Shown here one piece after another: positions 37,171 through 52,028 of a DNA stretch of 64,000 bases. Position numbers and translations under genes: made by a program. This DNA is from a virus. The notes under the pieces are model-generated. The model saw only the letters and a list, made by a program, of their open reading frames with translations. It was not told the origin of the DNA and did no database searches. The DNA lies in the IMG/VR virus record IMGVR_UViG_3300021956_000013, positions 1,236 to 65,235 of that record; one strand, written 5' to 3'. How positions within the stretch are numbered: the first letter of the stretch is position 1; each line of letters opens with the position of its first letter.

Positions 37171-37296
37171 TTGTTCATTTAGTTAATCTTTTAAGTTATT
37201 TGCAAAATGTTCGCAAACACGCTTATTTTGGCGTGTCAAATAGGGTCAAATGTCAGTGGTTAGGTATAGTCTAATAAAGTCAAAGAAAGGACAAAA

Positions 37297-37431
37297 ATGA
37301 AAGACAAAAAGACAGAACTAACCCAGATGTTAGCCAAGTATGCGAGAGCAGGAATACCCCTAACTAACGCTGAGAAAAACCTAATCAAGTATCTACTAGC
37401 CAAAGATAACAAAATGATAACGAATAAGTAA
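37297..37431 (+). CDS. Cassette ORF, 44 aa basic
   Basis: Motif promoter, GAAAGG RBS. Confidence 0.6.
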   Translation: MKDKKTELTQMLAKYARAGIPLTNAEKNLIKYLLAKDNKMITNK

Positions 37432-37525
37432 ATATTCGCAAAACTGAACATAATGGGCGTGTCAAAGGGTCTAAATGTCAGTGGTAGGGTATAGAGTAAT
37501 AATAGATAAAAGAAAGGCAAGTCAA

Positions 37526-37645
37526 ATGACTAACTACGAAATCAAAGCAAGATACAAAGAACTAATGCGTATCGCAGAAAGTGATGTAATGACAGCAAGC
37601 GAGTTTGATGAACTTATGGCAATGTTCGCAAAACTAAATAAATAA
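37526..37645 (+). CDS. Cassette ORF, 39 aa
   Basis: Motif promoter, GAAAGG RBS. Confidence 0.6.
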   Translation: MTNYEIKARYKELMRIAESDVMTASEFDELMAMFAKLNK

Positions 37646-37663
37646 AACTTAGTTTAGTTAGTG

Positions 37664-37706
37664 AGCCTGATTAGGTGAGCCTAGAAATAGCAAATAAACT
37701 AATCAG
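37664..37706 (+). ncRNA. Pseudoknot motif, variant copy
   Basis: gccTGATTAggt...aaacTAATCA; compensatory variant of the TGAGCA/TGCTCA pairing. Confidence 0.45.
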
Positions 37707-37773
37707 CAAATAAATAACTAAACAAAAACAAAACTAAATAAATAATAATCTACAAAAAAGAAATGAGAAATAA

Positions 37774-38184
37774 ATGAAAATAAAAACTTGGAAAGAAACC
37801 CAAATCCTTCTATCACTTAGCGACTATCGCAAGTTTTATGCGACTATCGCAGAACTGCCTAATGGTGAAAAGTCTATCGCTATCCATAACAAACTAATCA
37901 ACCTTAGCAATGTTTATCTAAACTATGACTATGAAAATGATACAATGCTATCTCAAAAAAATAGTGAGTGGAAATACTCTGCTGAACTAGATAGTTTTGC
38001 TACGAGTGAGTTTGTAAAAGTAAAAAACTTACTTGCTGAACTAAATGAGTTAGGCGTGAAAAGTTATTCTAACGAAATGCGTGTCAGTGATGGCGAAACT
38101 TATTTCTTAGCGTTTCTAAAAATGGAGTGCGTGTTGCGTTCTCGTGTGTTGCTTGCTCACTCTTATAGAGTAAAGCAACGCTAA
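37774..38184 (+). CDS. Hypothetical protein, 136 aa
   Basis: ORF with A-rich leader, followed by hairpin. Confidence 0.7.
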   Translation: MKIKTWKETQILLSLSDYRKFYATIAELPNGEKSIAIHNKLINLSNVYLNYDYENDTMLSQKNSEWKYSAELDSFATSEFVKVKNLLAELNELGVKSYSNEMRVSDGETYFLAFLKMECVLRSRVLLAHSYRVKQR

Positions 38185-38258
38185 AAATAAATTAGCAAAA
38201 AAAATAATTGTGTTAGTAAAAATAAAATTGCTAACGCAAAAATTTTTTGCCGACCGCC

Positions 38259-38272
38259 CGAACAAATGTTCG
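38259..38272. promoter_or_regulatory. SOS (LexA) box
   Basis: CGAAC-AAAT-GTTCG, matches the Gram-positive/actinobacterial CGAAC-N4-GTTCG consensus. Confidence 0.7.
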
Positions 38273-38329
38273 AATTAAGTGGAGCGTGTCGTTTCCCTAA
38301 ATGTCAGTGGTATGGTATAGGTTATAACT

Positions 38330-38476
38330 ATGAATAAATCAACTTGTTTCCTTTGCTCAGTCGCTACCCCTGCTCACCTTGTTGTTATTTCTAATGGCAA
38401 TGTGTTCCGTTCATGTGAGGCTTGCCTTGCTGGATACCCTGACCACCTAATCGAAACAACTATCGCTCTACCCTAA
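38330..38476 (+). CDS. Leaderless zinc-finger micro-ORF, 48 aa
   Basis: CFLC...CEAC; ATG about 6 nt after -10. Confidence 0.65.
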   Translation: MNKSTCFLCSVATPAHLVVISNGNVFRSCEACLAGYPDHLIETTIALP

Positions 38477-38490
38477 CGAAAGGTTCCACT

Positions 38491-38592
38491 ATGGAAAACT
38501 GCTGCTACTGCAACACTCCCTCTGTTCAAATCTGGGGGCAGGTCTGCTCAGATTGTGAGGACACCCTAGACTGGGGTGATGACGAAGACTAG
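38491..38592 (+). CDS. Zinc-finger acidic micro-ORF, 33 aa
   Basis: CCYC...CSDC, D-rich end; GAAAGG RBS. Confidence 0.6.
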   Translation: MENCCYCNTPSVQIWGQVCSDCEDTLDWGDDED

Positions 38593-38624
38593 ACTTGACA
38601 AAACACCCGAAAGGGTGCCGACCC

Positions 38625-38638
38625 CGAACAAATGTTCG
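38625..38638. promoter_or_regulatory. SOS (LexA) box
   Basis: Second identical CGAACAAATGTTCG. Confidence 0.7.
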
Positions 38639-38712
38639 ATTTACGTTGGGGGATTCTTTTCCCTAAATGTCAGTGGTAGGTGGTAGTGTATAACTATAAC
38701 GAAAGGAAGCCA

Positions 38713-38838
38713 ATGGAAATCATTCTCATTGAAGCAAGTTGCTCCAAATGCTGTGATTCACTGTTTTCAAGCAGCGAGCAAGAGTTCAAAACTCTACTAG
38801 ATAACCACGATTGCAAAACTGCGACCAGACCTTACTAG
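38713..38838 (+). CDS. CxxC...HxC mini-protein (family A)
   Basis: ASCSKCCDSLFSSSEQEFKTLLDNHDC. Confidence 0.65.
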   Translation: MEIILIEASCSKCCDSLFSSSEQEFKTLLDNHDCKTATRPY

Positions 38839-38891
38839 TCTGTGTCAGTGGTATCTGCTAAAATAAAACTAATCAAGAAAGGTAAAAACTA

Positions 38892-39041
38892 ATGGCAAAA
38901 ATGGCTGAACTATTCGAGGCAACTAACTATCCAGAGTTGGAGATTGCTGAGTGTGCTAAGTGTGGAACTGAAATCCTATTCGCAACTGAAACTGAGTTTG
39001 AGAAGTTGGTTGCTGAACACATACACACTTATCGCTGGTAG
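38892..39041 (+). CDS. CxxC...HxH mini-protein (family A)
   Basis: MAKMAELFEATN...AECAKCGTEILFATETEFEKLVAEHIH. Confidence 0.7.
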   Translation: MAKMAELFEATNYPELEIAECAKCGTEILFATETEFEKLVAEHIHTYRW

Positions 39042-39201
39042 GTGTGTCGCACTTGACAAAAGCCCTTCGGGGTGCCGACCGCAAAAATTTCCAAATGTCA
39101 ATACGACACGCCAAAAAATTTTCCAGAAATAAAGCGTGTCTAAATAATCAAATGTCAGTGGTCAGGTGTATAATAAAGGTATAAAGAAAAGGAAATAATA
39201 A

Positions 39202-39288
39202 ATGAGTGAAAAAGAAATGACACCAGAGCAGTTAGTAGCAGAGCAGGAATACCTTGCTTGGTTAGCAGAAGTTAGAAGACAAGGCTAA
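39202..39288 (+). CDS. Cassette micro-ORF, 28 aa
   Basis: Motif promoter and AAGGA RBS. Confidence 0.55.
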   Translation: MSEKEMTPEQLVAEQEYLAWLAEVRRQG

Positions 39289-39362
39289 CGCTCTGGCGTG
39301 TTTAACGCCTAATGTCAGTGGTATCCTGTAAAATAGAACTAATCAAAAGAAATGGAAAATAA

Positions 39363-39533
39363 ATGTTAGACAAGAACTCAAACATCTACCAAGTAGTAGA
39401 AGCCCTAAAAACTAAGAACTCAGTTTCTGCTGATGCTCCATACCCTTACCTGTCTGGTATGTGTTGGAGTTTGCTAAATGAAACTCAGCGTAAAAAGTTG
39501 ATAGAAATGGTAAATAAGATGGAGAATAAATAA
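39363..39533 (+). CDS. Cassette ORF, 56 aa
   Basis: Motif promoter; translationally coupled to next ORF. Confidence 0.65.
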   Translation: MLDKNSNIYQVVEALKTKNSVSADAPYPYLSGMCWSLLNETQRKKLIEMVNKMENK

Positions 39534-39629
39534 ATGGAAGACTGGAAACTCGCATTAGCAGAAATCCAAAAGTCAATGAGAGAAGACTTTATTTCTCAAA
39601 TCAAAACTAATGAACAGGAAAATAAATAA
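39534..39629 (+). CDS. Micro-ORF, 31 aa
   Basis: TAAATG coupling; GGAG RBS. Confidence 0.55.
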   Translation: MEDWKLALAEIQKSMREDFISQIKTNEQENK

Positions 39630-39835
39630 TGGTAAAAGTTGCTCTAGTAATCTCAACACTAATCTTAGGTGTATTCAGTTTTGTAATCGCTGACGCTTAT
39701 AGATACACTTCACTAATCAATGACCAAGAGAGTTATAAAGTATTCTCTGGTCAATGGGCGTTAGTTGGTGTTCAGTTTGTAGTTGGTTCTCTAATCTTGG
39801 CGTTGATGTTCATAATCAAATCACGCAAGAAATAA
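39629..39835 (+). CDS. Two-TM membrane protein
   Basis: Two hydrophobic helices, basic tail. Confidence 0.7.
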   Translation: MVKVALVISTLILGVFSFVIADAYRYTSLINDQESYKVFSGQWALVGVQFVVGSLILALMFIIKSRKK

Positions 39836-39890
39836 AAAAATAATCTTGTGGGTGTGTCGCTTGACATACCCCAAGATTTTTGCCGACCCC

Positions 39891-39899
39891 TGTGGATAA
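39891..39899 (-). promoter_or_regulatory. DnaA box
   Basis: TGTGGATAA within GCCGACCCCTGTGGATAAC, identical to 37141-37159. Confidence 0.6.
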
Positions 39900-39999
39900 C
39901 TTATAACGATTTGGTTACGAGAGTTAAGAAACACCCCCTAAATCCCCTAAATGTCAGTGGTATCCCCTATAATAGAAACATAACAAGAAAGGCTAACTA

Positions 40000-40152
40000 A
40001 TGAACTTACCAACCAAACTACACAAGAACCCTAGCAAGAGATACACCCTATTTGAATACACCATAAATGGCTCAACAGTTGTATCTGCTATTCATTTCTA
40101 CGACTTGCTCCCATTTCTAGCAGAACACCCAGAAGCCAAGCGTGTCCGCTAG
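40000..40152 (+). CDS. Cassette ORF, 50 aa
   Basis: Motif promoter, GAAAGG RBS. Confidence 0.65.
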   Translation: MNLPTKLHKNPSKRYTLFEYTINGSTVVSAIHFYDLLPFLAEHPEAKRVR

Positions 40153-40206
40153 GCTAAATGTCAGTGGTGCCCTGTATAATTGAACTAACTAAGAAAGGTA
40201 AAACTA

Positions 40207-40353
40207 ATGGCTAAAATGGCAGAACTATTTGAAGAGACTAACAGCATTATTTTTGATGTTGCTGAATGTGCAGAGTGTGGAGTTGAAATTGAATTCTCTA
40301 CTGATAAAGAATTTGCTGAATTGGTAAATGGACACGTTTGTGTCCGCTACTGA
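40207..40353 (+). CDS. CxxC...HxC mini-protein (family A)
   Basis: MAKMAELFEETN...AECAECGVEIEFSTDKEFAELVNGHVC; paralog of 38892. Confidence 0.7.
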   Translation: MAKMAELFEETNSIIFDVAECAECGVEIEFSTDKEFAELVNGHVCVRY

Positions 40354-40405
40354 TGTCAGTGGTCAGTTGTATAATTGAAATACCTAAAAGAAATGGAAAA
40401 ATAAA

Positions 40406-40594
40406 ATGGATAATATGGACAAGTTCTATGAACAGCGTGAGCAAGATTTCTGGACTTACTGGAACAAGGTAAAGGCTTATGCTGATGAAGCCAACACTGA
40501 TATTTATCAGGTTGTCAATTTTAGACAAATCTTTGACCAAGCCTATACGCTAGGTGCATTGCAAACACACAAGAAAGAAGATAATAATGAGTGA
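40406..40594 (+). CDS. Cassette ORF, 62 aa
   Basis: Motif promoter. Confidence 0.7.
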   Translation: MDNMDKFYEQREQDFWTYWNKVKAYADEANTDIYQVVNFRQIFDQAYTLGALQTHKKEDNNE

Positions 40595-40685
40595 AGAAGA
40601 AATAATAATTCTTGATAAACTAATTGACCACTTCAATTTTTTTGAAAAACTAATCGCTGAAAATAAAGAACAGGAAAAAAACTAA
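40587..40685 (+). CDS. Micro-ORF, 32 aa
   Basis: Overlap-coupled to neighbours. Confidence 0.5.
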   Translation: MSEEEIIILDKLIDHFNFFEKLIAENKEQEKN

Positions 40686-40885
40686 TGGACATCTATGAAA
40701 AATTTACTCAAGAAGAATTAGAGCAGATGCATGATGAAATGCTGGATGAAACTTATCCACCATACAGAATTGGATACACAGATTTTTATCCATCACAAAT
40801 TTTAGCAAACTGCGACCCAATCATGTATCAAATTTCTGTTCAAGAGTATGCAGACTTTTTGCAAGAGCAGGAAAATGAAGAATGA
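40685..40885 (+). CDS. Acidic phage hypothetical protein
   Basis: DEMLDETYP...PSQILANCDPI. Confidence 0.7.
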   Translation: MDIYEKFTQEELEQMHDEMLDETYPPYRIGYTDFYPSQILANCDPIMYQISVQEYADFLQEQENEE

Positions 40886-40941
40886 TTGCTCTGGGAATAA
40901 TTTTAACAGTTTTAGTGTTTATATATTTAGTAAATCAATAA
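40882..40941 (+). CDS. TM micropeptide, 19 aa
   Basis: MIALGIILTVLVFIYLVNQ; ATGA overlap. Confidence 0.5.
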   Translation: MIALGIILTVLVFIYLVNQ

Positions 40942-41067
40942 ATAAAATTGGTGGTGTGTCTTCTTGACATGCCACCTTTTTTGTGCCGACCGCCCCTGGC
41001 GTGTCGTGTATTAAGTGCTGATGTCAGTAGTCCCCTGTATAATTATTTTATCTAAGAAAGGCTAACT

Positions 41068-41181
41068 ATGGAAGAAAAGACCACCTGCGATTTCTGTTCT
41101 AATGAATGGATTGGCTATGTCCAAATTGGAAATGACTTACCTTGGGTATGCGAAACACACTGGGAAATGTACGCTAAGTAA
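41068..41181 (+). CDS. Zinc-finger micro-ORF, 37 aa
   Basis: CDFC...CETH. Confidence 0.65.
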   Translation: MEEKTTCDFCSNEWIGYVQIGNDLPWVCETHWEMYAK

Positions 41182-41233
41182 ATGTCAGTGGCTACCTGTA
41201 TAATTATTCTATCAACCAAGAAAGGCACTAACT

Positions 41234-41512
41234 ATGGCAGTATTCAATTTCATTTCTGATGATTCACACGGATGGATGGAAGTTTCTCTAATCGAATTCC
41301 CTGAAGCAATAAACTACGCATCAGGTTTTGGCTACATCAACGGAAATACTATTTATCTTGAAGAAGATGATGAGGCTGAAAACTTTATCTACCACCTGAG
41401 AAGTCAGGGTGAGCCTATCACTTTCGCTGAGAAAATCTATGACGGACAGTGGTATGGCAGAGCGTATGCTCGCAATGTCAGGGGTATGCACTATAATCAA
41501 ACTACTAACTAA
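41234..41512 (+). CDS. Hypothetical protein, 92 aa
   Basis: FISDDSHGW...IYLEED; 3' end contains next promoter motif. Confidence 0.7.
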   Translation: MAVFNFISDDSHGWMEVSLIEFPEAINYASGFGYINGNTIYLEEDDEAENFIYHLRSQGEPITFAEKIYDGQWYGRAYARNVRGMHYNQTTN

Positions 41513-41523
41513 GAAAGGCAACT

Positions 41524-41637
41524 ATGCTACTATACAGTGATGACTATGAGCCAGACAACTATGAGGGAGACCAAGACCTCAATGAGTATGAGGATGACTG
41601 GTCAACTGTTGAGAGCGAACTCTTCGGAGATTGCTAA
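41524..41637 (+). CDS. Very acidic micro-ORF, 37 aa
   Basis: SDDYEPDNYEGDQDLNEYEDDW; GAAAGG RBS. Confidence 0.6.
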   Translation: MLLYSDDYEPDNYEGDQDLNEYEDDWSTVESELFGDC

Positions 41638-41769
41638 CTCAGCACCCTTCGGGGTGCCGACCACGACACGCCCGAAAAACATTTAAGATAAAAAAAGATT
41701 TTCCCCATTTCCTATTGCCAAATGTCAGTGGTATCGCTTATAATAGAAGTATCAAGAAAGGAAAAACTA

Positions 41770-41925
41770 ATGAAAACTATTTGCGTATTTTGTCTAGAAG
41801 TCTATGGGGAAGACGCTATTGGTTGCTGGTCTTGTAATGAATACAAGGGCATAATGCCACTAAACGAAGAAACACTAAACTACTTAGGCGAAGACCTAGA
41901 AGACTGGGCAGAATACCTAGTCTAA
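41770..41925 (+). CDS. Zinc-finger acidic protein, 51 aa
   Basis: CVFC...CWSC. Confidence 0.7.
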   Translation: MKTICVFCLEVYGEDAIGCWSCNEYKGIMPLNEETLNYLGEDLEDWAEYLV

Positions 41926-41964
41926 TGTCAGTGGTCGCTGGTAAAATAATAACATCAACAAGAA

Positions 41965-42177
41965 ATGGAAAATAAAATGGAAAATGAAAAAAAGAGATAC
42001 ACCTTTGGTGGCTTCACATTTGGCACTAACAACCTGTTCAACCTAACTATCCTAGTTCGCAACCACGCTGGACACGGAACTAGCAACTCTGTTGAACTTG
42101 GACTAGAACTAAATACTGCTGAAATCCAAGAACTAATCACTGTTCTACTAACTAGAAATGTAAAGGAAGATAACTAA
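41965..42177 (+). CDS. Cassette ORF, 70 aa
   Basis: Motif promoter. Confidence 0.65.
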   Translation: MENKMENEKKRYTFGGFTFGTNNLFNLTILVRNHAGHGTSNSVELGLELNTAEIQELITVLLTRNVKEDN

Positions 42178-42368
42178 TGATGACACGCAAGGACTATGTT
42201 AGCACTGCTGAGATTTTGGCAGACTATCGCAGAGATTTTTACTCTACCCCCGAAACTGCTGACAGTTTTGAAGCAATGGTAAATGACTTTGCTCAAATGT
42301 TCGCAGATGACAACGAGAGATTTATGCGTTCTAAGTTTATTGACGCTTGCTTAGGAGAGGATTTCTAA
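42177..42368 (+). CDS. Hypothetical protein, 63 aa
   Basis: MTRKDY...AQMFADDNERFMRSKFIDAC, a common phage small-protein pattern. Confidence 0.75.
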   Translation: MMTRKDYVSTAEILADYRRDFYSTPETADSFEAMVNDFAQMFADDNERFMRSKFIDACLGEDF

Positions 42369-42521
42369 ATGGAAATTGTATTCGCAATACTTGGAGTTAT
42401 TCTAGTTGGTTATTTATTCTGGCAGAGTTATTTGCTTGCTAATTATTCTAAAATTATAGATAACCAAAAAGATGTTATCGCTAAGTTGGCTAGAGAGATA
42501 GACACACTAAAACCTTTTTAG
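42369..42521 (+). CDS. TM plus coiled-coil protein, 50 aa
   Basis: Hydrophobic N-terminus; GGAGAGG RBS. Confidence 0.6.
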   Translation: MEIVFAILGVILVGYLFWQSYLLANYSKIIDNQKDVIAKLAREIDTLKPF

Positions 42522-42648
42522 TTTTCTCAATCGCTACCCTTCGGGGTGGCGATTTGGGTCGGCAGCCCAAGGTTACATCTAGGTTACGATAATTAAGAAA
42601 CACACCCAAAATCTCCACGATGTCAGTGGTATTGTGTATAATAGGACT

Positions 42649-42819
42649 ATGAAGAAAAGAAAGCCACCACTAAATAAAGTTGCTCAGGCAACTCGCAACG
42701 CACACTCAGCAGAACTTTTTAGAAGTCTGTTACTAAACAAGCACCTAGTCGCTACCCCTGCCAAGCGTAAGGGTTCTCGCAAGGCTAACATCATCAAGGC
42801 TATCAAGGAGTATAACTAA
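42649..42819 (+). CDS. Leaderless basic protein, 56 aa
   Basis: K/R-rich; ATG about 6 nt after TATAAT. Confidence 0.65.
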   Translation: MKKRKPPLNKVAQATRNAHSAELFRSLLLNKHLVATPAKRKGSRKANIIKAIKEYN

Positions 42820-43115
42820 TGGCTAAATCAAATAAAGTAAATCTAATGGACATAACAGACCTGCCACTAGAAGAACAAATCTATCAAATCCTAAGAGGTA
42901 GAGGTTTCCACACTAGGTTTGTAGGTATAGACCTAAGAGAGTTAGCAGAGGAAATAGTTTTTACTCTTGACTTTGTAAATGGAGATAATCCTGACCAGCC
43001 TATTATCCTGAATACCCTGCCAGAAATAACAGGTGAAGACGGAGTTCCAGCACTAGACCTAATCAAGCGTTTTGGTTTAGATGACTATGTTATGGAGAGT
43101 GTCCTAAATGGATAA
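42819..43115 (+). CDS. Hypothetical protein
   Basis: AAGGAG RBS, coupled start. Confidence 0.7.
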   Translation: MAKSNKVNLMDITDLPLEEQIYQILRGRGFHTRFVGIDLRELAEEIVFTLDFVNGDNPDQPIILNTLPEITGEDGVPALDLIKRFGLDDYVMESVLNG

Positions 43116-43470
43116 GAAAACTATTATTGAAAAATACAACATTGACCCTAATCAAACCCTAGATGTCTTCTATGACAATGGCGAGGTATGGTGTAGTGAA
43201 GATGGTGAGTGGTCAGTATTTCATTGTGGAGAAATGAGAGTTGACTACAATGGCGAAAGACTATACACAAACACGGACTTTATCAAAGTTGGTTTAGATA
43301 CAGATGACAAAGTTGGTGAAGCAGAGGCTAACGAAGAACTCTATTGGCACATGAACCCATGGTTTATTGTTGCTAAAAAAGATGACCTAGATAATGAGTA
43401 TGGAATTACAGGCAACATCATTGATGCAATACAGCAAGCCCTAGTTTTAGCCAATGTCAGTGGTCAGTAG
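43108..43470 (+). CDS. Acidic hypothetical protein
   Basis: 120 aa; ends NVSGQ, encoded by the promoter motif. Confidence 0.7.
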   Translation: MDKKTIIEKYNIDPNQTLDVFYDNGEVWCSEDGEWSVFHCGEMRVDYNGERLYTNTDFIKVGLDTDDKVGEAEANEELYWHMNPWFIVAKKDDLDNEYGITGNIIDAIQQALVLANVSGQ

Positions 43471-43501
43471 TATAATTATCTTATCAAACAAAGGAGAGTA
43501 A

Positions 43502-43633
43502 ATGGAAAACGAAGACAAAGAATACTTCAAGGAAATGTTTGAGCAGTATCACAATGGTGAAATAGATGTTTTTGAACTAATGGATAATCTTGAAACTGAT
43601 AGATTTGATGGAGATGTTTTTGATTACCTGTAA
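43502..43633 (+). CDS. Acidic micro-ORF, 43 aa
   Basis: AAGGAG RBS. Confidence 0.65.
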   Translation: MENEDKEYFKEMFEQYHNGEIDVFELMDNLETDRFDGDVFDYL

Positions 43634-43708
43634 CTAGGTACCCTTCGGGGTCGGCACAATGTCAGTGGTCGTATGTATAATAGACTTACGAAAGAAAGAG
43701 GAAACCCC

Positions 43709-43843
43709 ATGAATGTATCAGTAGAAAAACTAATTGAGATGAAGGTATTGCGAGAGTCTATGTTTGGCTCTGGAGATTGGTATGTAATCTATACCGAAGA
43801 TGGACCTAAAGATGTATCCCTTGCTACCCTGACAAGTGAGTAA
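43709..43843 (+). CDS. Cassette ORF, 44 aa
   Basis: Motif promoter; stop abuts next motif. Confidence 0.65.
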   Translation: MNVSVEKLIEMKVLRESMFGSGDWYVIYTEDGPKDVSLATLTSE

Positions 43844-43892
43844 TGTCAGTGGTTGCCTGTAAAATAGAACTATCAAAAGAAAAGGGAAACTA

Positions 43893-44090
43893 ATGGAATG
43901 TTTAGATTGTATAAATAAAACTCATAAAATTTATTGGGGAGCCTTGTCCGAAAAAGACATGGAGTTATTGGGATACACCTACCATAAGTGTTTATTTTGT
44001 TCTCACCAACCTCTAATTTGGAATACCCTTATTGGAGATGCAGTCTGCGAGGGTTGCGGTGAATGGCAAGATGTCAGTGGTATCAGGTAA
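43893..44090 (+). CDS. Zinc-finger protein
   Basis: CLDC, CLFC, CEGC; ends DVSGIR. Confidence 0.7.
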   Translation: MECLDCINKTHKIYWGALSEKDMELLGYTYHKCLFCSHQPLIWNTLIGDAVCEGCGEWQDVSGIR

Positions 44091-44119
44091 AATAGAACTA
44101 TCAAAAGAAAAGGAAAAAA

Positions 44120-44404
44120 ATGAGACCAGTTGTAATGGATAGACACGTTGCCAACCTTGGACTACAAGCAGGTATGGGTGACGATTGGACAGAACTATTC
44201 TGCGATAAAGAGTTTATGGCTATGCTCCAGACTCACTATAACCAGATGGTGAAATACATAAAGGCTAAGTATCTTACTTATCCGTGTAATGATTTTGCTC
44301 CAGATACCCTTGCTCCAGACGAGCGAGATGGAATTGATTGGACGCTGGTATGCACTACTTGTCTGCACCATAAGCAAGACCATAATGTCAGTGGTATCAA
44401 GTAA
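44120..44404 (+). CDS. Cys/His-containing protein
   Basis: CTTCLHHKQDH; ends NVSGIK. Confidence 0.7.
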   Translation: MRPVVMDRHVANLGLQAGMGDDWTELFCDKEFMAMLQTHYNQMVKYIKAKYLTYPCNDFAPDTLAPDERDGIDWTLVCTTCLHHKQDHNVSGIK

Positions 44405-44434
44405 AATAGTATTATCAAAAGAAAAGGAAAACTA

Positions 44435-44956
44435 ATGGAACAAAACTTAGATGTAATGATTGCGACAGTATCAACAGATTGTCAGTGTAGTTATTTTGAC
44501 GAAGAACTAGATGACTTTGTTGCTATGGAGTATTGCGAAGGCGATTGCTACTACTGGCAGAAGGAAGATGTGATGATGGTGATTGGCGAATGGCAGTTGC
44601 TGAATGACATTGACGAAGATGACCTTATCCGTATCTCTGGAACTAAGATTGGTTGGCAGGGTAGAAGTGGATACAAGGATACAGACATTCTAGAACTACA
44701 CGGAGCGTTAGCCCTTGACGGAGATTTCCGTATCACTTGGACACTAGACATTCCAAACAAGAAACTAACTGCTAGGCGTTCATCTCACGATGAACCTATG
44801 GGAGCAAACTTTGAGATTGACTTTATCAAGATGACTACTTGCGACAATTGCGATAACGCCATCTCTGTTGATACTCACGCAGAAGAACTTGGTATGTGTG
44901 TTGATTGCTCTAACGAATACTTTACTCACAATGACGAAGAGCCTATTGACTTGTAG
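44435..44956 (+). CDS. Acidic Cys-rich protein, 173 aa
   Basis: SSHDEPMG motif, CDNC...CVDC. Confidence 0.75.
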   Translation: MEQNLDVMIATVSTDCQCSYFDEELDDFVAMEYCEGDCYYWQKEDVMMVIGEWQLLNDIDEDDLIRISGTKIGWQGRSGYKDTDILELHGALALDGDFRITWTLDIPNKKLTARRSSHDEPMGANFEIDFIKMTTCDNCDNAISVDTHAEELGMCVDCSNEYFTHNDEEPIDL

Positions 44957-44979
44957 AGAGTAATGTGAGACAATAGAGT

Positions 44980-45048
44980 ATGAATACAACAATAACGATA
45001 ATCACAATAGGAAGTTTAGCAATACTGCTATTCTTACTAAATCAGTAG
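44980..45048 (+). CDS. TM micropeptide, 22 aa
   Basis: MNTTITIITIGSLAILLFLLNQ. Confidence 0.45.
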   Translation: MNTTITIITIGSLAILLFLLNQ

Positions 45049-45188
45049 TCCTGCTACCCTCGAAAGAGGGTGCCAGGCTGCCGACCGCAAATGTAACAAA
45101 ACGATAAATCATTTACGAAACACCCTAAATGTCCCCTAAATGTCAGGGGTAGCCCTTATAATAGAACTACAACAAAGAAAGGAAACCA

Positions 45189-45566
45189 ATGGAAGATTAT
45201 TGGGATGATGTAGAAATGGCAGTTCAGTTTGCTCAGGGTATCGCTTTTGATACCTGCCACAAAATCTATGTTCTTATGGATGATAAGCAAGTAGAACTTA
45301 TGCGTGAGTATCAGTATGACGAGATTAGAACTAGAAGTGAAATGAAACCAGCAGAAATGTTTGACACTCTAAAAAAGTGGTATGCCGAAAGTTGTGCCTT
45401 GAAGTTTATTCAGGGTGTTCATAGCGTAGGTGAGAACGAAGACGAGAATGATGGTTTTGACACACTTATTCCACAAGGGGCAGAGCAAGAAGAAGACGAA
45501 TGCGACTTATGCTTTTCTCATTGTGGAGATACCTGCCAAGACGATGATGAAGAAGACGAAGACTAA
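45189..45566 (+). CDS. Acidic hypothetical protein
   Basis: GIAFDTCHKIY...SCALKFI; D/E tail. Confidence 0.75.
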   Translation: MEDYWDDVEMAVQFAQGIAFDTCHKIYVLMDDKQVELMREYQYDEIRTRSEMKPAEMFDTLKKWYAESCALKFIQGVHSVGENEDENDGFDTLIPQGAEQEEDECDLCFSHCGDTCQDDDEEDED

Positions 45567-45670
45567 TGGAACAAATAGTCTTAGAGTGTGAGAGTAATCA
45601 CGAATGGATTGGCTCACCGCTTTACTGCTCCGCCTGTGGAGTAGATAAAGGAAACGAAACCAACCCCTAA
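45566..45670 (+). CDS. Zinc-ribbon micro-ORF, 34 aa
   Basis: CESNHEW...CSACG. Confidence 0.6.
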   Translation: MEQIVLECESNHEWIGSPLYCSACGVDKGNETNP

Positions 45671-45723
45671 TGTCAGTGGTTAGGTTTATAATAGAAATAC
45701 AACAAAAGATAAGGAATAAATAA

Positions 45724-46125
45724 ATGGAAAACAACGAAAGCAAGCACCCTGTTCTTACTGCCCTAAATGGCAAGATAGAAGAACTACTAGCACAACTAGC
45801 AAAACTACAAGCAGACTACGAATTGCTTGATAGCAGATACGCAAGGGAAGTTAGAGCAAGGCAAGACCACGAAACTTACCTAAACGAAACTCTAATGAAC
45901 GCTATTGAGAATGGCTACGACAGAGAAACCATTTTCTATGTTGCTAACGAACTTGATGTTTCACTAACACAACTAAAAACATTTGTGGTTCAGGCAGAGT
46001 TTCAGGTAGAAGTCATTATGCCTATTGACGAAGAGTTTGATGCTGATGACTTGGACTTTACCCTAAGCCACGAAAATCTAAATGATTATACTTTCACAGG
46101 TATAATTTCTAGTGAAGAGAATTAG
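45724..46125 (+). CDS. Coiled-coil acidic protein
   Basis: 133 aa, motif promoter. Confidence 0.75.
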   Translation: MENNESKHPVLTALNGKIEELLAQLAKLQADYELLDSRYAREVRARQDHETYLNETLMNAIENGYDRETIFYVANELDVSLTQLKTFVVQAEFQVEVIMPIDEEFDADDLDFTLSHENLNDYTFTGIISSEEN

Positions 46126-46152
46126 GCGGTTCTAACCTTTCTTTTCCGCCTA

Positions 46153-46180
46153 ACACCTGAGTAAGTGTATAAACTGCTCA
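46153..46180 (+). ncRNA. H-type pseudoknot motif
   Basis: ACAC-c-TGAGTA-a-GTGT-ataaac-TGCTCA. Confidence 0.55.
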
Positions 46181-46289
46181 TTTTTTGTGCCGACCAAAAA
46201 TAACAAATCCATAACTTATTTACGATAGCCCTTGTAAATGTCAGGGGTAGGCTGTATAATAGAACTATCAAAGAAAGAGAGAAAACCCT

Positions 46290-46517
46290 ATGTTGTATGT
46301 AGCCCCTGATGGAAACTATGGTGAAGCAGAATACCTTGTTGTTGTAGATAACGAGAGTTTTGACGAACACTTTTACGGATACCTTGACACTTGTGCTGAC
46401 TGGCTAAGACCTAGTTTTGCTAAGTGGTTTGAAGAAAATGACCACGACTTTACCCAAGCAGATAACTTAGAGTGGGCTTGTTCCGTTTGTGAAGAGTGGT
46501 TAGAGAGTGAGAGATAA
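46290..46517 (+). CDS. Acidic hypothetical protein
   Basis: YVAPDGNYGEA. Confidence 0.7.
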   Translation: MLYVAPDGNYGEAEYLVVVDNESFDEHFYGYLDTCADWLRPSFAKWFEENDHDFTQADNLEWACSVCEEWLESER

Positions 46518-46645
46518 TGGCAGAAGTAAACTATTGGCGAAACATGTTCTATGACCTGCTTGAAGAAGTAGAGCAAATGTATGGACATGAAGATGTTTGG
46601 GAAAAGTTCAGGGAATACGCAAAAGAGTTAGAAGAGGATAACTAA
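46517..46645 (+). CDS. Acidic micro-ORF, 42 aa
   Basis: TAATG coupling on both sides. Confidence 0.6.
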   Translation: MAEVNYWRNMFYDLLEEVEQMYGHEDVWEKFREYAKELEEDN

Positions 46646-46833
46646 TGATAGTTCAGGTTCAATGCAACTGGTGTGAAAAACTATTTGATGATGTTGACAT
46701 CGTAGAGTGTGATGTTTGTAAGACAGACTCTTACCTAATGGACATAAGAGATGAGCCTTGGGGTCTTGACTCTTCCAAGGGGTATTCAATCTATGGTCAG
46801 GAAACAGGTCTAAGGGATAGTGACTTTATCTAA
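46645..46833 (+). CDS. Zinc-ribbon protein
   Basis: CNWC...CDVC. Confidence 0.7.
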   Translation: MIVQVQCNWCEKLFDDVDIVECDVCKTDSYLMDIRDEPWGLDSSKGYSIYGQETGLRDSDFI

Positions 46834-46876
46834 TGTCAGTGGTAGGGTTTATAATAGAACTAACGAAAGGAAACAA

Positions 46877-46978
46877 ATGATAAACTTTGACAATGTTATC
46901 AACGAAGAAGCAATCGAAAAACTAACAGATGAGCAAGCAGAAGCCTTATTGGCTATTTTAGAGAAAGCAGGATACTAA
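46877..46978 (+). CDS. Micro-ORF, 33 aa
   Basis: FDNVINEEAIEKLTDEQAEALLAIL; GAAAGG RBS. Confidence 0.65.
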   Translation: MINFDNVINEEAIEKLTDEQAEALLAILEKAGY

Positions 46979-47178
46979 TGCCTAAATACGCATTCAACTT
47001 TTGGGAAGAAAGCAAATGGGCTATCACCTTTGAAGCAGACAACCTAGACCACGCTAAGAAACTATTGGCAGAAGCAGAAGAAGAAATGGACTTAGATTGG
47101 TTGCCTGAAATGGAACGCTTTTTCAAAAAGGGTGATGAAACTTGGGACAGCGAAACACTAGCAGAAGTGGAGAACTAA
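46978..47178 (+). CDS. DpnD/PcfM-like acidic protein
   Basis: YAFNF...ITFEADNLDHAKKL pattern. Confidence 0.55.
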   Translation: MPKYAFNFWEESKWAITFEADNLDHAKKLLAEAEEEMDLDWLPEMERFFKKGDETWDSETLAEVEN

Positions 47179-47339
47179 TGGAACTAGCACAAGCATACGA
47201 AATAGTATTAGCAGACTTAGAAGAAAGAAATAGTCATACCATAGGTAGATTGCTTCACTGGGACTGGACAGGTCAAAATGAAGAACTTATGTATAGGGCT
47301 TGGTTGGTTGCTAAAACTTTTATTGAGCAGAACGAATAG
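47178..47339 (+). CDS. Hypothetical protein
   Basis: Coupled start MELAQAYE. Confidence 0.6.
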   Translation: MELAQAYEIVLADLEERNSHTIGRLLHWDWTGQNEELMYRAWLVAKTFIEQNE

Positions 47340-47409
47340 CACTACCCTTCGGGGTCGGCAGCCAAAAATAACAGAATGATAACGCTTTACGAAATCTTTT
47401 ACGAAACCC

Positions 47410-47438
47410 TTGACTTTTCCCCCATTTTCCCTTATACT
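47410..47438 (+). promoter_or_regulatory. Canonical sigma-A-type promoter
   Basis: TTGACT-17-TATACT. Confidence 0.7.
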
Positions 47439-47487
47439 TGTAGTATCAACAAAAGTTGAGAAAAACTACAAGTAGAAAGAAGCAAAA

Positions 47488-47646
47488 ATGGCAAACACAT
47501 TTACCATTCCATCTGTTGGCTCACAGTTCGCAACCCAGAAGTCTGGCGTTGTTGGCACAGTTCAGGAAGTAATCAAGAACGCAAATGGTTCATTCCGTAT
47601 CAAACTTGATGTTGCTGGACAGCCACGCTGGACAACTGCTAAGTAA
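47488..47646 (+). CDS. Small beta-barrel (SH3/KOW-like) protein, 52 aa
   Basis: PSVGSQFATQKSGVVGTVQEVIKNANGSFRIKLDV; biased codons. Confidence 0.75.
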   Translation: MANTFTIPSVGSQFATQKSGVVGTVQEVIKNANGSFRIKLDVAGQPRWTTAK

Positions 47647-47661
47647 GTCCTAGAAATAGGG

Positions 47662-47695
47662 CAGACCTGAGCAAGTCTGGCAAAAAAACTGCTCA
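47662..47695 (+). ncRNA. H-type pseudoknot motif
   Basis: CAGAC-c-TGAGCA-a-GTCTG-gcaaaaaaac-TGCTCA. Confidence 0.55.
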
Positions 47696-47701
47696 ACCCT
47701 A

Positions 47702-47730
47702 TTGACAAATCCCTTATCAACCTGTATAAT
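47702..47730 (+). promoter_or_regulatory. Consensus sigma-A-type promoter
   Basis: TTGACA-17-TATAAT. Confidence 0.8.
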
Positions 47731-47768
47731 TGTATTATACAAATAACCCTAATAGAAAGTAGAAAATA

Positions 47769-48209
47769 ATGGCAAGAGCCTTATCAGTAAAAGTTCCAAC
47801 ATCAAGTCTAATCGCTTTGTTGGAAGACAAAATCGCAACAATCCAAACTGCTATCGCAGATTATCCAAGAGCAAAGGCTCAATACAAGGAAGATGTAAAG
47901 GCATACAAGAAGTCTGTCCTAAACCTTGCCCTATCCAAGATTGCTTCTAACCCAGAAGTCTTGTTTGATAACGATAGCCTAGATGTTAGCACATCTTATC
48001 GCAATGATGTCCAAATCACTTTGGATAAGGACTTGTTTGAGTTGCCAGAAATGCCAGAGCAACCAGAAGACCCAAATCGTAAAGAGTGGATTGGCAGAGA
48101 CCACACAACTAAGTTGTCTGTTTTAGAGAAAACTCTGGCTGTTCTAAAACTAACAAATCAGGAAGAAGTAAGTGCTTCCACATACAACTCTGTAATGGAG
48201 TTGCTATAA
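47769..48209 (+). CDS. Hypothetical protein, 146 aa
   Basis: Consensus promoter; ALSVKVPT...LKLTNQEEVSASTYNSV. Confidence 0.8.
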   Translation: MARALSVKVPTSSLIALLEDKIATIQTAIADYPRAKAQYKEDVKAYKKSVLNLALSKIASNPEVLFDNDSLDVSTSYRNDVQITLDKDLFELPEMPEQPEDPNRKEWIGRDHTTKLSVLEKTLAVLKLTNQEEVSASTYNSVMELL

Positions 48210-48228
48210 ACCATAGGCTTACGCCTAA

Positions 48229-48256
48229 ACACCTAAGCAAGTGTCTAAACTGCTTA
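48229..48256 (+). ncRNA. H-type pseudoknot motif
   Basis: ACAC-c-TAAGCA-a-GTGT-ctaaac-TGCTTA. Confidence 0.55.
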
Positions 48257-48264
48257 TCTCTAAC

Positions 48265-48555
48265 AAGGTTGTTTAGTTTGGGTTCAATTCCCAAATAGAG
48301 AACAAACAAGCGAATGACGATTTGCTTGGAGTATGGCTGAACGAAGTTCTTTGTCTAGGAGGAACGAGAAAGGCACAGCGTGGGTTTAGCGACCCCAACT
48401 TAGCGGTTGAAAGCGTTGGTAGGATGATGGCGGTACTATAAGAGACTCCCAGACTACTCCTTGGTGGTAATAGACAATCCACCTACTCACACACTTCCCC
48501 CTGTGAAGATTGACTATCCTAATTAGATAGGTAAAATTAGCAGGGGGATTTTTTG
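48265..48555 (+). ncRNA. Candidate structured ncRNA with T-loop
   Basis: About 290 nt with no credible ORF; TTGGG-TTCAATT-CCCAA T-arm-like hairpin; ends at tccccctg/caggggga hairpin plus T-run. Confidence 0.35.
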
Positions 48556-48609
48556 TGCCGACCCCCATAACGTTTTGGTAACACTAGTAAAATTGTTTTA
48601 CGAAACACT

Positions 48610-48638
48610 TGACAAATCCCCGAAATAATGGGATAATT
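48610..48638 (+). promoter_or_regulatory. Sigma-A-type promoter
   Basis: TTGACA-17-GATAAT. Confidence 0.65.
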
Positions 48639-48679
48639 GAGTATCAAATAAATCCATTTATCACGAAAGGTGTCCATTT

Positions 48680-49693
48680 ATGGCTCACGAATTAGAAATC
48701 AACGAAGCAACAGGCGAAGCGTCTTTTGCTTCCCTACGCCAACCTGCTTGGCACAATCTTGGAACTGTGTTTCAGGAAGAAGTATCAACTGCTAAGATGT
48801 TGGAATTAGCAAAACTAGACAATTGGAATGTTCGTCTTGAAGATGTGGTTGTCCCTGCTGGTTTTACTAGCGACAGAAACTACTCATTCGTATCTCGCAC
48901 AAATCCATTCAACGCAGAACAAACAGACATTCTTGGTGTCGTTGGTGAGCGTTATGTTCCACTACAAAATGAAGACTTGTTTTCATTTGGCGATAACTTG
49001 CTAGATGGTGGTGGGCGTTGGGAAACTGCTGGTTCAATCAAGGGTGGCAGACAAGTTTTCGGTTCTATCGCATTAGAGCGTGAAACTGTCCTTGACCCTA
49101 ATGGCGTGTCTGATGTTGTCAAGTCATACCTGCTACTAAACACAAGCCACGATGGAAGTATCGCTATCCAAGCGTCTATTACTCCTGTTCGTGTAGTTTG
49201 TGCTAACACTCTAAACCTTGCTCTATCTTCTCTAAAAGGTAAAAAGGGTATCAAACAAACTTTCAAGATTAGACACACACAAACAGCAGAAGGTAAAATC
49301 GCTGTTGCTCGTGAAGCGTTGGGTCTTGCTAATCACTACTTAGACGAGTTTGATTTACTTGCTAAGGAAATGATTGCTAAGGAAATCACACAGGCTAAGT
49401 TTGATGAGATTGTTCTAAAAGCGTATCCAATGCCAACTAAGGACAGCAAGGGTTCTATGAAGAAGTGGTCAGATAAGATTGACCTTATTCAATCTATCTA
49501 TGTTGGCGATTACAACAACACAATTTCAGGAACTGCTTGGGGTGCTTTGAACGCATTGACAGAACGCCTAGATTGGTATCGCAACTCTCGTGGTTCAAAC
49601 AACGAAAGCATTTACGCAAGTGCTTCTGGTTTTGACCCTGTAATCAACGCAGAGAAAAATCGTTTGATGAACTTGGTTTTGGCAAGCGTATAA
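48680..49693 (+). CDS. DUF932 / TIGR03299 phage-plasmid protein
   Basis: MAHELE...PAWHNLG, GVVGERYVPLQN, ETAGSIKGGRQVF, SHDGS, TPVRVVCANTL, GTAWGALNA. Confidence 0.9.
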   Translation: MAHELEINEATGEASFASLRQPAWHNLGTVFQEEVSTAKMLELAKLDNWNVRLEDVVVPAGFTSDRNYSFVSRTNPFNAEQTDILGVVGERYVPLQNEDLFSFGDNLLDGGGRWETAGSIKGGRQVFGSIALERETVLDPNGVSDVVKSYLLLNTSHDGSIAIQASITPVRVVCANTLNLALSSLKGKKGIKQTFKIRHTQTAEGKIAVAREALGLANHYLDEFDLLAKEMIAKEITQAKFDEIVLKAYPMPTKDSKGSMKKWSDKIDLIQSIYVGDYNNTISGTAWGALNALTERLDWYRNSRGSNNESIYASASGFDPVINAEKNRLMNLVLASV

Positions 49694-49699
49694 TCTCGC

Positions 49700-49727
49700 A
49701 GACCTGAGCAAGTCTAAAAACTGCTTA
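49700..49727 (+). ncRNA. H-type pseudoknot motif
   Basis: AGAC-c-TGAGCA-a-GTCT-aaaaac-TGCTTA, 6 nt after stop. Confidence 0.55.
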
Positions 49728-49862
49728 CCAATTTCTCACTTGACAAAGTGCGAAATTTGGGTCGGCAATTTCTAACTAGTTAATCATTTATGTTGATTAC
49801 GAAATGGTTAAGATTTCCCTAAAACTATTGCATTTGTCAGTGGTCATCTGTATAATTGACTT

Positions 49863-50171
49863 ATGAATGAAAACGAAACTATTATCCTTACCCCTGTTTA
49901 TGACGAAGACAACGCACCTTACATCTACCCTGACGCAGATGACTTACAATCCTATCAAAGATTACAGTTTATCGTGTGGGGGCTAGAAAGCCTAGAAAAG
50001 CAACTATGGAACTCTGCTGAACGAGGCTGGCACGACACCAGTGGTCCCGAATTCCAATCATTCCTAAAGATGATTAGGGGTATCTACAACGAGAAGACTG
50101 ATAGCCTTACTAAGTATAACTTTGTAATCCTAGAAGACGAGATGTTAGAGCAAGCATCACAGATGTTCTAA
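49863..50171 (+). CDS. Leaderless hypothetical protein
   Basis: ATG about 6 nt after TATAAT; stop abuts next motif. Confidence 0.7.
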   Translation: MNENETIILTPVYDEDNAPYIYPDADDLQSYQRLQFIVWGLESLEKQLWNSAERGWHDTSGPEFQSFLKMIRGIYNEKTDSLTKYNFVILEDEMLEQASQMF

Positions 50172-52011: not shown

Positions 52012-52028
52012 GAGAGAGAGTAAACCCT

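Follow-up and report, generated by a model that had tools for sequence, protein, structure and literature searches.

A short RNA element that recurs just behind stop codons in a freshwater virus belongs to a large family of predicted H-type pseudoknots, and this family is a member of no Rfam family. The stretch of DNA analysed here (64,000 nucleotides, hereafter the window) corresponds to bases 1236-65235 of a 70.9-kb IMG/VR virus record that is estimated to be ~70% complete and comes from freshwater metagenomes. The window carries four copies of the element, all on the + strand, at 46153-46180, 47662-47695, 48229-48256 and 49700-49727. With hundreds of independent copies elsewhere they share a fold of 28 nucleotides (nt) that is common, nearly base for base, to many mobile elements and is parked at the edge of the terminating ribosome. 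We tentatively propose that the pseudoknot may act as a portable gene-end cap or terminator, that is, as the 3′-terminal structure of the upstream message that would halt 3′-to-5′ decay.

A covarying H-type pseudoknot

The consensus of the family consists of a 4-bp stem 1, a C, the sequence U-R-R-R-Y-A, one nucleotide, the second strand of stem 1, two nucleotides (up to eight), AAAC and the complement of the hexamer. The whole element is 28-34 nt long, stem 2 has 5-6 bp and the junction nucleotide is A or, less often, U. Stem 2 takes its 5′ strand from the loop that stem 1 closes, no nucleotide is common to the two stems, and the structure is thus an H-type pseudoknot of the classical kind. 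The C of loop 1 and the AAAC columns are invariant in one of our alignments (A3), in which stem 2 covaries, with GC, AU and GU at two of its pairs and GC, AU and CG at a third.

In the window, stem 1 is either ACAC/GUGU or AGAC/GUCU. Copy 1 (46153-46180) reads ACAC-C-UGAGUA-A-GUGU-AUAAAC-UGCUCA: stem 1 pairs 46153-56 with 46165-68, loop 1 is C46157, stem 2 pairs 46158-63 with 46175-80 and includes one U-G pair, loop 2 is A46164 and loop 3 is AUAAAC (46169-74). Copy 2 (47662-47695, with its 4-bp core starting at 47663) has a stem 1 of 5 bp, CAGAC/GUCUG, the fifth pair being C47662-G47679. Its loop 3 is lengthened to about 10-11 nt (GCAAAAAAAC) and its stem 2, UGAGCA/UGCUCA, is Watson-Crick throughout. 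Stem 2 of copy 3 (48229-48256) is UAAGCA/UGCUUA, which compared with copy 2 is a compensatory change from G-C to A-U, and copy 4 (49700-49727) has one G-U pair in stem 2. Copies are single and lie 0.5-1.5 kb apart. The preliminary description of this DNA, made from the sequence alone, had placed copies at 46153, 47662, 48229 and 49700, and both these positions and the pairings given for them, with their G-U and compensatory changes, proved correct.

A covariance model (R1) was built from 150 diverse members, with stem 1 represented as pairs and stem 2 as sequence, and was run with all filters off. It recovers exactly four copies in the 64-kb window, with 34.5-43.5 bits and E-values of 7e-8 to 2e-10; the best of the remaining hits has 10 bits and an E-value of 0.7. 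Copy 1 scores 43.5 bits (E 1.9e-10), copy 2 34.5 bits (E 7e-8), copy 3 42.2 bits and copy 4 41.6 bits. A fifth genuine copy lies in the same record beyond the window, on the minus strand (G000 67127-67154; 28.7 bits, E 4e-6). It reads AGUC-C-UGGGUA-U-GACA-GU-AAAC-UGCCCA (L188 1500-1560). The gene upstream of it is Hsp20-like, with its TAA 6 nt before the element, and downstream come a TATAAT box and a Dps-like gene.

A variant copy had also been claimed at 37664, and this claim did not hold. The site has no stem 1 (GAGC against GUGA gives 2/4 pairs) and is not hit by the model at E<=10. What it does have is AAAC and a 7-bp complement of the upstream CUGAUUA, the two halves being separated by a 17-nt insert, and it folds as an ordinary nested hairpin (z -1.1). 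At best, it is an unproven, decayed relative of the family. Nor does the 11-mer CCTAGAAATAG, present at both 47649 and 37680, link the two sites, because 11-mer repeats are expected by chance hundreds of times in 64 kb.

Covariation was measured outside the window. A first pattern, in which ~20 bases were specified, was run against 2.9 million viral contigs, for which ~1 chance match was estimated; it left free one stem-1 position, two stem-2 positions and all that lies outside the core. At least 110 viral contigs matched. Among the matches listed there are 115 distinct sequences (alignment A1), in which the free stem-1 pair, one side of which was N in the pattern while the other lay beyond it, is GC in 53, CG in 44, AU in 17, UA in 1 and unpaired in none. 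Of the free stem-2 pairs, the one with its 3′ side beyond the pattern is GC in 75, AU in 31, GU in 6 and unpaired in 3. None of 500 shuffles reached the observed score, and pairing, which is 94% in the true register, fell to 18-41% when the partners were slid by 1-3 columns. A second pattern, which covered a different class of stem 1 (NNUC...GANN), matched at least 119 viral contigs and gave 122 new sequences among the matches listed. In this second sample the two free stem-1 pairs are Watson-Crick in 120/122 and 94/122 (plus 15 G-U), with all four pair types present.

The range of sequences that the fold tolerates is best seen with a structure descriptor that fixes only the C, the U...A and the AAAC and otherwise requires pairing, so that its counts are selected for pairing and show diversity only. 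In 1.1 Mb of fetched loci it detects 200 copies, and in shuffled versions of these loci none; among the 200 are the stem-2 variants UGGGUA/UACCCA, UGGACA/UGUCCA, UGGCCA/UGGCCA and UAGGCA/UGCCU, where two to three pairs change together. G-U pairs occur on the sense strand only (for instance, U-G in 21/115 at one stem-2 pair), and the upstream coding sequence lies on the same strand as the element in 93% of cases; the fold is therefore one of RNA, and the element is specific to the transcribed strand. On the evidence of these alignments both stems exist and covary, and the element is an H-type pseudoknot, so that the earlier idea of a compact, covarying structured RNA in 3′ untranslated regions is backed by hundreds of independent copies elsewhere.

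Placement immediately behind stop codons

Where does the pseudoknot stand with respect to genes? Among 406 distinct copies pooled, 227 have an open reading frame (ORF) of at least 40 codons that ends no more than 45 nt upstream. The distance from the stop codon to stem 1 in these 227 is 5 nt in 52, 6 nt in 29, 7 nt in 15, 8 nt in 19, 9 nt in 25 and 10-11 nt in 19, and it falls below 5 nt in just 7. This anchoring to the stop persists when the next gene lies 100-700 nt off, and distances to the next start scatter widely around a median of ~60 nt. Nearly all copies (245/247) are outside long ORFs, the remaining 2 being probably chance matches in bacterial genomes. No 3-nt periodicity was found in the spacing, which was checked for in-frame back-up stops inside the element.

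Members of the family typically begin 4-11 nt behind a co-oriented stop, or else behind one small hairpin. The four copies of the window start 27, 16, 19 and 6 nt after a stop, respectively. In copies 1-3 a small extra hairpin occupies most of the spacer. Read from the sequence, these accessory hairpins are GGCGG...CCGCC (46125-46150, +), between the TAG at 46123-25 and copy 1; CCUA-GAAA-UAGG (47649-47660, +), between the TAA at 47644-46 and copy 2; and UAGGC-UUAC-GCCUA (48214-48227, +), between the TAA at 48207-09 and copy 3. The same arrangement is found in the family, since copies with spacers of 12-32 nt have a small hairpin right after the stop in 26/48 cases (mean z -2.7). Copy 4 starts 6 nt after the TAA of the gene at 48680-49693 (+), which encodes a DUF932 / phrog_1221 protein (E 2e-48). 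The same gene family followed by the pseudoknot is seen in at least 18 other phage loci, mostly with a tRNA-Asp 3-7 nt further on. Overall, the upstream gene is DUF932/phrog_1221 in 18/85 cases and the rest are unrelated, mostly small unknown ORFs.

The identity of the stop codon itself is biased. The stops before the element in the first sample are TAA in 90, TAG in 23 and TGA in 10 cases, against 973/296/392 for the other same-strand ORFs of the same loci, which gives 10/123 UGA stops versus a background of 24% (odds ratio 0.29, p 3e-5). An independent second sample gave 50/11/4 (TAA/TAG/TGA) against 754/226/421, that is, 4/65 versus 30% (odds ratio 0.15, p 5e-6). UGA stops are thus 3-6-fold under-represented directly upstream of the element (loci L005-L300). 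UAG is not depleted, and therefore the avoidance of UGA is not simply an avoidance of G or a preference shown by highly expressed genes.

On the downstream side several contexts occur. A U-tract (at least 6 of 7 T, 0-3 nt downstream) follows 39/247 copies of the first sample and 12/122 of the second, compared with 1.7% at control positions after other stops. These shares of 16% and 10% are 6-9 times the control rate, and the share reaches 27% (13/49) among copies whose next gene is more than 100 nt away. In the window, the layout of an intrinsic terminator, a stem followed by a U-tract, is seen in copy 1, which is followed directly by a T6 run (46181-86) and then by the 9-mer GTGCCGACC, the whole spanning 46181-46195 (+); copies 2-4 have no U-tract. 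The 5′ end of a tRNA lies 2-7 nt downstream in ~20 copies and involves at least five different tRNAs, namely Asp, Met, Ser and Glu, plus Gly in Arthrobacter phage Amigo. Otherwise a ribosome-binding site (RBS) or a promoter follows, the latter being the case in the window, and the flanks of the element are G-poor. In total, a gene or tRNA is close downstream in ~60% of copies. A mimic of the tRNA acceptor end was considered and dropped, since no more than ~6% of copies have a CCA behind stem 2 and most of these belong to a single orthologous locus.

We also asked which flank is shared between related copies. Homology was upstream-only in 67 cases, downstream-only in 65 and on both sides in 15, but conserved tRNAs inflate the downstream class and the comparison is ungapped, so these counts are uninformative on which neighbour the element travels with.

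Distribution over phages and other mobile elements

The carriers named here were confirmed both by sequence and by the model. Roseophage SIO1 has a copy after its ribonucleotide reductase gene, and Arthrobacter phage Amigo and its cluster have one between the SSB gene and the tRNA-Gly. Further copies are found in the Clostridium tetani phage phiCT19406B, in Lentibacter, Celeribacter and Paracoccus phages, and in the crAss-like phages cr7_1 (two copies), cr8_1 and cr124_1. A scan of 185,579 species genomes returned 65 loci, in Bacteroidota, Firmicutes, phytoplasmas, cyanobacteria, Actinobacteria, Rickettsiales, several lineages of the Candidate Phyla Radiation (CPR) and two archaeal metagenome-assembled genomes (MAGs); some of the hits in MAGs may be phage contamination. 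On the chromosome of Streptococcus sanguinis (L126 4470-4503) the copy lies between RepA_N and TrbL/VirB6 genes, flanks which indicate that this carrier is a conjugative element and not a phage. Hundreds of phages and other mobile elements, from many bacterial phyla, carry the element behind genes. A search of 5,426 complete E. coli genomes gave no copy, and none turned up in the phages of enterobacteria and of Pseudomonas, of which GenBank has many.

RNase J (TIGR00649) is present in the Streptococcus, phytoplasma and Saccharibacteria carriers and was not found in the element-carrying Capnocytophaga and Chryseobacterium genomes. Missing from these two Bacteroidota carrier genomes, it was rejected as a universal target of the element.

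Comparison with known RNAs

Rfam holds no counterpart of the element. Nothing at the element reaches the gathering score in the 64-kb window, and at E<=10 there is nothing at the element in 19 kb or with a 71-nt query. No match was obtained to the Rfam models of pistol, twister, hammerhead, hatchet, preQ1-I/II/III, SAM-II/V, guanidine-III, NAD-II or STAXI. When known ribozymes were sought at equivalent gene ends in 14 multi-copy loci (149 kb), only tRNAs reached the gathering score. The papers searched gave no description of the motif, although PMC10690425, which in 2023 catalogued 10,006 candidate viral RNAs, may hold it unnamed.

Several known pseudoknots are nevertheless similar in shape, the closest in print being those of the coremin/xrRNA-WCC type and of luteoviruses. 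Coremin, an exoribonuclease-resistant RNA (xrRNA-C), and its Watson-Crick variant xrRNA-WCC are found in plant, fungal and insect RNA viruses (PMC10520033, PMC10321173, PMC6546385). Like the phage element, coremin has H-type topology, a usual site just after an ORF, a 4-bp first hairpin closed by C-G, a loop that starts with a pyrimidine, and an A-rich spacer ending in UAAAC that precedes the residues pairing with the loop; this loop pairing is GGAG/CUCA in SPlV5 and UGAGCA/UGCUCA in the phage element. There are also differences. Stem 2 has 0-3 bp in coremin and 5-6 Watson-Crick bp in the phage element, the coremin consensus is YGAD or YGNNAD whereas the phage loop, CUGAGYAA, has 8 nt with U and not G at position 2 (PMC10520033), and the phage element lacks the downstream hairpin hp2. 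The carriers differ as well, being DNA phages and conjugative elements of bacteria, which have no Xrn1 and in some cases no RNase J.

The -1 frameshift pseudoknots of luteoviruses (beet western yellows virus (BWYV), pea enation mosaic virus 1 (PEMV-1) and sugarcane yellow leaf virus (ScYLV); PMC10321173) resemble the element in their size of ~28 nt, a short loop 1 that contains C, an A-rich loop 3 crossing stem 1, a single junction nucleotide and a distance of 5-8 nt from the A-site codon. In contrast to them, the phage element is preceded by a stop codon where they have a slippery heptamer, lies outside ORFs, has a stem 2 longer than stem 1 and occurs mostly in contexts where a recoding product is impossible. 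The element is like the luteovirus triplex pseudoknots and coremin/xrRNA-WCC in shape and in several residues, and has the defining features of neither family.

Among bacterial elements, repetitive extragenic palindromic (REP) elements and intrinsic terminators are said, on the strength of work by Newbury et al. in 1987 and by Liang, Rudd and Deutscher in 2015, to stabilise mRNAs at their 3′ ends. Both share with the pseudoknot their multiple copies, their location just after stops, their orientation with the gene and their proposed part in stopping 3′ exonucleases, and in REP elements closeness to the stop affects the terminating ribosome. They are, however, GC-rich hairpins and not pseudoknots, and the phage element is far shorter, cross-phylum instead of species-specific, carried by mobile elements and linked to no transposase of the REP-associated tyrosine transposase (RAYT) type. 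The preQ1-I aptamer (RF00522; PMC11625349) is also H-type and ~30-34 nt long; its stem 1 is short, its loop 1 is a single nucleotide, and AAAC at the end of an A-rich tail precedes its stem 2. Its model does not hit the phage element, which lies 3′ of genes, forms a stable stem 2 of 6 bp and shows no link to queuosine genes. STAXI (RF01728) of conjugative elements likewise consists of small pseudoknot units in the intergenic DNA of mobile elements, but its model gives no hit at E<=10 and its units are in tandem, whereas the phage element is single and anchored to stops.

A possible cap or terminator at gene ends

How might so short a fold serve phages of unrelated hosts? In the mechanism that we propose, the element would be a self-contained pseudoknot of ~28 nt belonging to the 3′ untranslated end of the upstream gene. 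The ribosomal helicase, which Takyar, Hickerson and Noller are said to have located in 2005, reportedly lies ~11 nt from the first base of the P site, that is, ~5 nt past a stop codon in the A site. Together with the spacing floor of 4-5 nt and the mode of 5-6 nt, this position argues that the element stays folded during termination. The pseudoknot would then be placed as near to the coding region as allows it to fold while ribosomes translate and terminate. Where a U-tract follows, as in copy 1 and in 10-16% of the family, stem 2 would play the part of the hairpin in an intrinsic terminator. If a tRNA or a spacer open to cleavage lies downstream, processing would leave the pseudoknot plus a tail of 2-7 nt as the 3′ end, and it is RNase P cleavage at the 5′ end of the downstream tRNA that would produce that end of the message. 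In both cases 3′-to-5′ exonucleases would be halted just short of the coding region.

Luteoviral pseudoknots, as in the BWYV structure, and coremin-type pseudoknots (PMC10321173) use such C and A-rich loop residues for groove triplexes. By the same token, the invariant C of loop 1 and AAAC of loop 3 may form major-groove and minor-groove triplex contacts, as in pseudoknots of the luteovirus type, to which they lend a mechanical strength unusual in such small folds. Such contacts would supply a strength that nested folding energies do not show, and this could be the reason why phages of unrelated hosts all retain one short sequence and why it can travel as a gene-end module that does not depend on the host. 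We regard a cap or terminator as the best supported of the readings because of the enrichment of U-tracts, the tRNA 5′ ends downstream and the position of copy 1, which takes the slot of a conventional terminator hairpin in a layout of hairpin, T-run and GTGCCGACC that is repeated in the window. The avoidance of UGA can be listed on the same side, as a sign of contact with the ribosome, though no model yet fully explains it. Of the four functions suggested in the preliminary description, only the blocking of 3′ exonucleases fitted the context.

Several observations nevertheless weigh against the proposed cap or terminator. The sole RNA run, a freshwater metatranscriptome, holds contigs of relatives at 85-95% identity, from which neither ends nor transcription of the copies can be demonstrated. 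More than 80% of copies have no U-tract and many have an RBS 12-40 nt later, and therefore termination is not the general role. At -5 to -6.6 kcal/mol, nested folding would be too weak to block exonucleases well if tertiary contacts did not contribute a good deal. Particular bases are conserved across phages of Firmicutes, Actinobacteria, Bacteroidota, Alphaproteobacteria and CPR hosts; such conservation exceeds what is usual for a plain stability element and hints at a more demanding function (criteria of the Breaker laboratory, PMC5737381). Finally, a pure 3′-cap model leaves the avoidance of UGA unexplained.

The fold could instead act on what comes from its 5′ side. As a mechanical roadblock or insulator resembling coremin and xrRNA-WCC, it would stop ribosomes that run past the stop codon as well as a 5′-to-3′ exonuclease, with the consequence that the downstream cistron or tRNA would be expressed and would decay independently. 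We consider this unlikely, though less so than the other alternatives. Both the architecture and specific details match coremin and its Watson-Crick variant (PMC10520033, PMC10321173), and coremin is a block to Xrn1 and to scanning ribosomes as well as a stimulator of -1 frameshifting. Frameshift stimulators have their spacer optimum at the same 5-6 nt, the avoidance of UGA would fit a structure that perturbs termination at leaky stops or blocks ribosomes that have run past them, and ~60% of copies do have a gene or tRNA close downstream. On the other hand, the hp2 hairpin that coremin requires for its resistance to exonuclease is not enriched, a hairpin lying within 6 nt in 33/247 copies as against 55/241 control windows; bacteria have no Xrn1, and RNase J, their analogous 5′-to-3′ exonuclease, was not found in the Capnocytophaga and Chryseobacterium carriers; copies followed by a U-tract leave nothing downstream to protect; and the element is anchored to the upstream stop and not to the downstream gene. 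The conservation of particular bases directs attention to more sophisticated RNAs, such as an aptamer for a small molecule, on the plan of preQ1-I, a self-cleaving ribozyme of a new kind, or a site where a universally conserved host factor docks (the entry site of the ribosome, RNA polymerase or RNase P), which we judge rather improbable. A pseudoknot with invariant nucleotides in many phyla agrees with the rule of thumb for demanding functions (PMC5737381), a marginal stability would suit a switch, tRNA 5′ ends 2-7 nt away would suit RNase P, and the occurrence of both U-tract and RBS contexts recalls the expression platforms of riboswitches. Yet no riboswitch or ribozyme of Rfam matches a 71-nt query even at E<=10, and the self-cleavage suggested in the preliminary description has no support, since equivalent sites in 14 loci hold no ribozymes either; the neighbouring genes have nothing in common beyond the DUF932 gene in 18/85, the rest being unrelated small ORFs; the position is fixed to the upstream stop with no conserved expression platform downstream; a 3′ CCA follows in only ~6% of copies; and a 6-bp stem 2 should form without a ligand. 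A related idea, to which we give similarly low weight, is a host-independent device that touches the mRNA-entry face of the terminating ribosome (and in addition acts as a terminator for RNA polymerase where a U-tract is present), or else a new minimal ribozyme or aptamer. Either would explain the conservation of bases in phages of at least six phyla together with the avoidance of UGA stops, which are read by release factor 2 (RF2) only.

The remaining explanations are far less probable. That the element is a DNA-level linker for the exchange of cassettes by recombination, its RNA fold being secondary, would agree with a window built of shuffled mini-cassettes, with the gaps found in the contig of a related phage (48257-48495, starting right after copy 3, and 46185-47385, 4 nt after copy 1) and with relatives such as L069, which are identical through the element and diverge right after it. 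Recombination, however, needs identity and not compensatory change, and here both stems covary with four pair types, the G-U pairs are on the sense strand only and 93% of copies are co-oriented with the gene, so that we hold this possibility to be very slight. Still smaller credence goes to an anti-defence decoy, such as the mimic of a type III antitoxin RNA pseudoknot that the preliminary description had raised. A phage-encoded pseudo-ToxI does exist (PMC3475682) and the element is a small phage pseudoknot, but its copies are single and 0.5-1.5 kb apart, whereas ToxI-like antitoxins form a tandem array of ~36-nt repeats beside the gene of a ToxN/AbiQ-type endoribonuclease; the flanking ORFs gave no ToxN/AbiQ, other defence-system protein or Pfam hit, Rfam gives no match, phages of at least five phyla share one sequence, which misfits system-specific antitoxins, and the anchoring to stop codons would be left unexplained. 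It is just as hard to believe in a recoding signal that causes read-through or frameshifting at the stop codon, the former also among the functions first suggested. Although spacers of 5-9 nt are those of known recoding pseudoknots, the spacing shows no 3-nt periodicity and bears no relation to the frame of the stop, a conserved slippery sequence is missing, tRNAs, U-tracts or promoters begin only a few nucleotides downstream, UGA as the leakiest stop is avoided rather than favoured, and only 2/247 copies are inside long ORFs.

Should the pseudoknot cap or terminate messages independently of the host, it would offer a portable gene-end part for the design of synthetic operons and a new mark for annotating gene ends in phage dark matter. 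If it acts on the ribosome or on nucleases in the way of coremin xrRNAs, a principle known from eukaryotic RNA viruses would extend to bacterial DNA phages, and a device at the face of the ribosome, if real, would set termination, ribosome release and the fate of the message together, as a new class of termination-coupled cis-element. The avoidance of UGA and the minimum spacing of 5 nt are testable handles on how downstream structure affects bacterial termination.

Cassette layout of the early-gene region

The copies of the window lie in an early-gene region (37-54 kb, + strand) that is made of many mini-cassettes, in each of which a promoter and several small ORFs are succeeded by a hairpin plus T-run and then by the 9-mer GTGCCGACC. 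BLAST of a 4-kb region against GenBank phages found no relatives, and the tRNA/tmRNA finder ARAGORN gave zero matches in the window. With one mismatch allowed, GTGCCGACC occurs 18 times against 2.8 expected, 16 of the 18 lying in 37139-53715, on both strands. It is invariably just 3′ of a hairpin or T-run and 5′ of promoters of the form AAATGTCAGTGGT-N-TATAAT. This layout of 9-mer, promoter and hairpin resembles the shuffled promoter/stem-loop cassettes (PeSLs) of T4-type phages. Several of the terminator hairpins at cassette ends (40983, 39880, 37139 and others) have large loops with GTGTCG...TTGACAT, in which a -35-like box is contained. Directly 3′ of copy 4 there is a conventional cassette-end hairpin of 12 bp followed by an inverted GCCGAC box (49728-49760, +; minimum free energy -12.3, z -5.1), the loop of which contains TTGACAAA.

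Directly 3′ of copy 3, at 48309-48493 (+), the window matches the manA RNA (RF01745) with 52.6 bits, slightly below the gathering score of 55.2 (E 4e-11). The match lies 5′ of a hairpin, a T-run and GTGCCGACC, and it is an element separate from the pseudoknot, near which no other Rfam family was found. The contig of a related phage, from a DNA run, lacks exactly 48257-48495, so that manA is an indel bounded on the left by the final base of copy 3, a copy whose sequence is identical in L069. A relative's contig (run X3) skips 46185-47385, which holds at least three small-gene cassettes, starting 4 nt after copy 1. In the same contig, 47646-47720, with the accessory hairpin, copy 2 and a promoter, is swapped for 65 other bases. 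These differences fall at the borders of modules, and therefore it is at these borders that cassettes are gained and lost.

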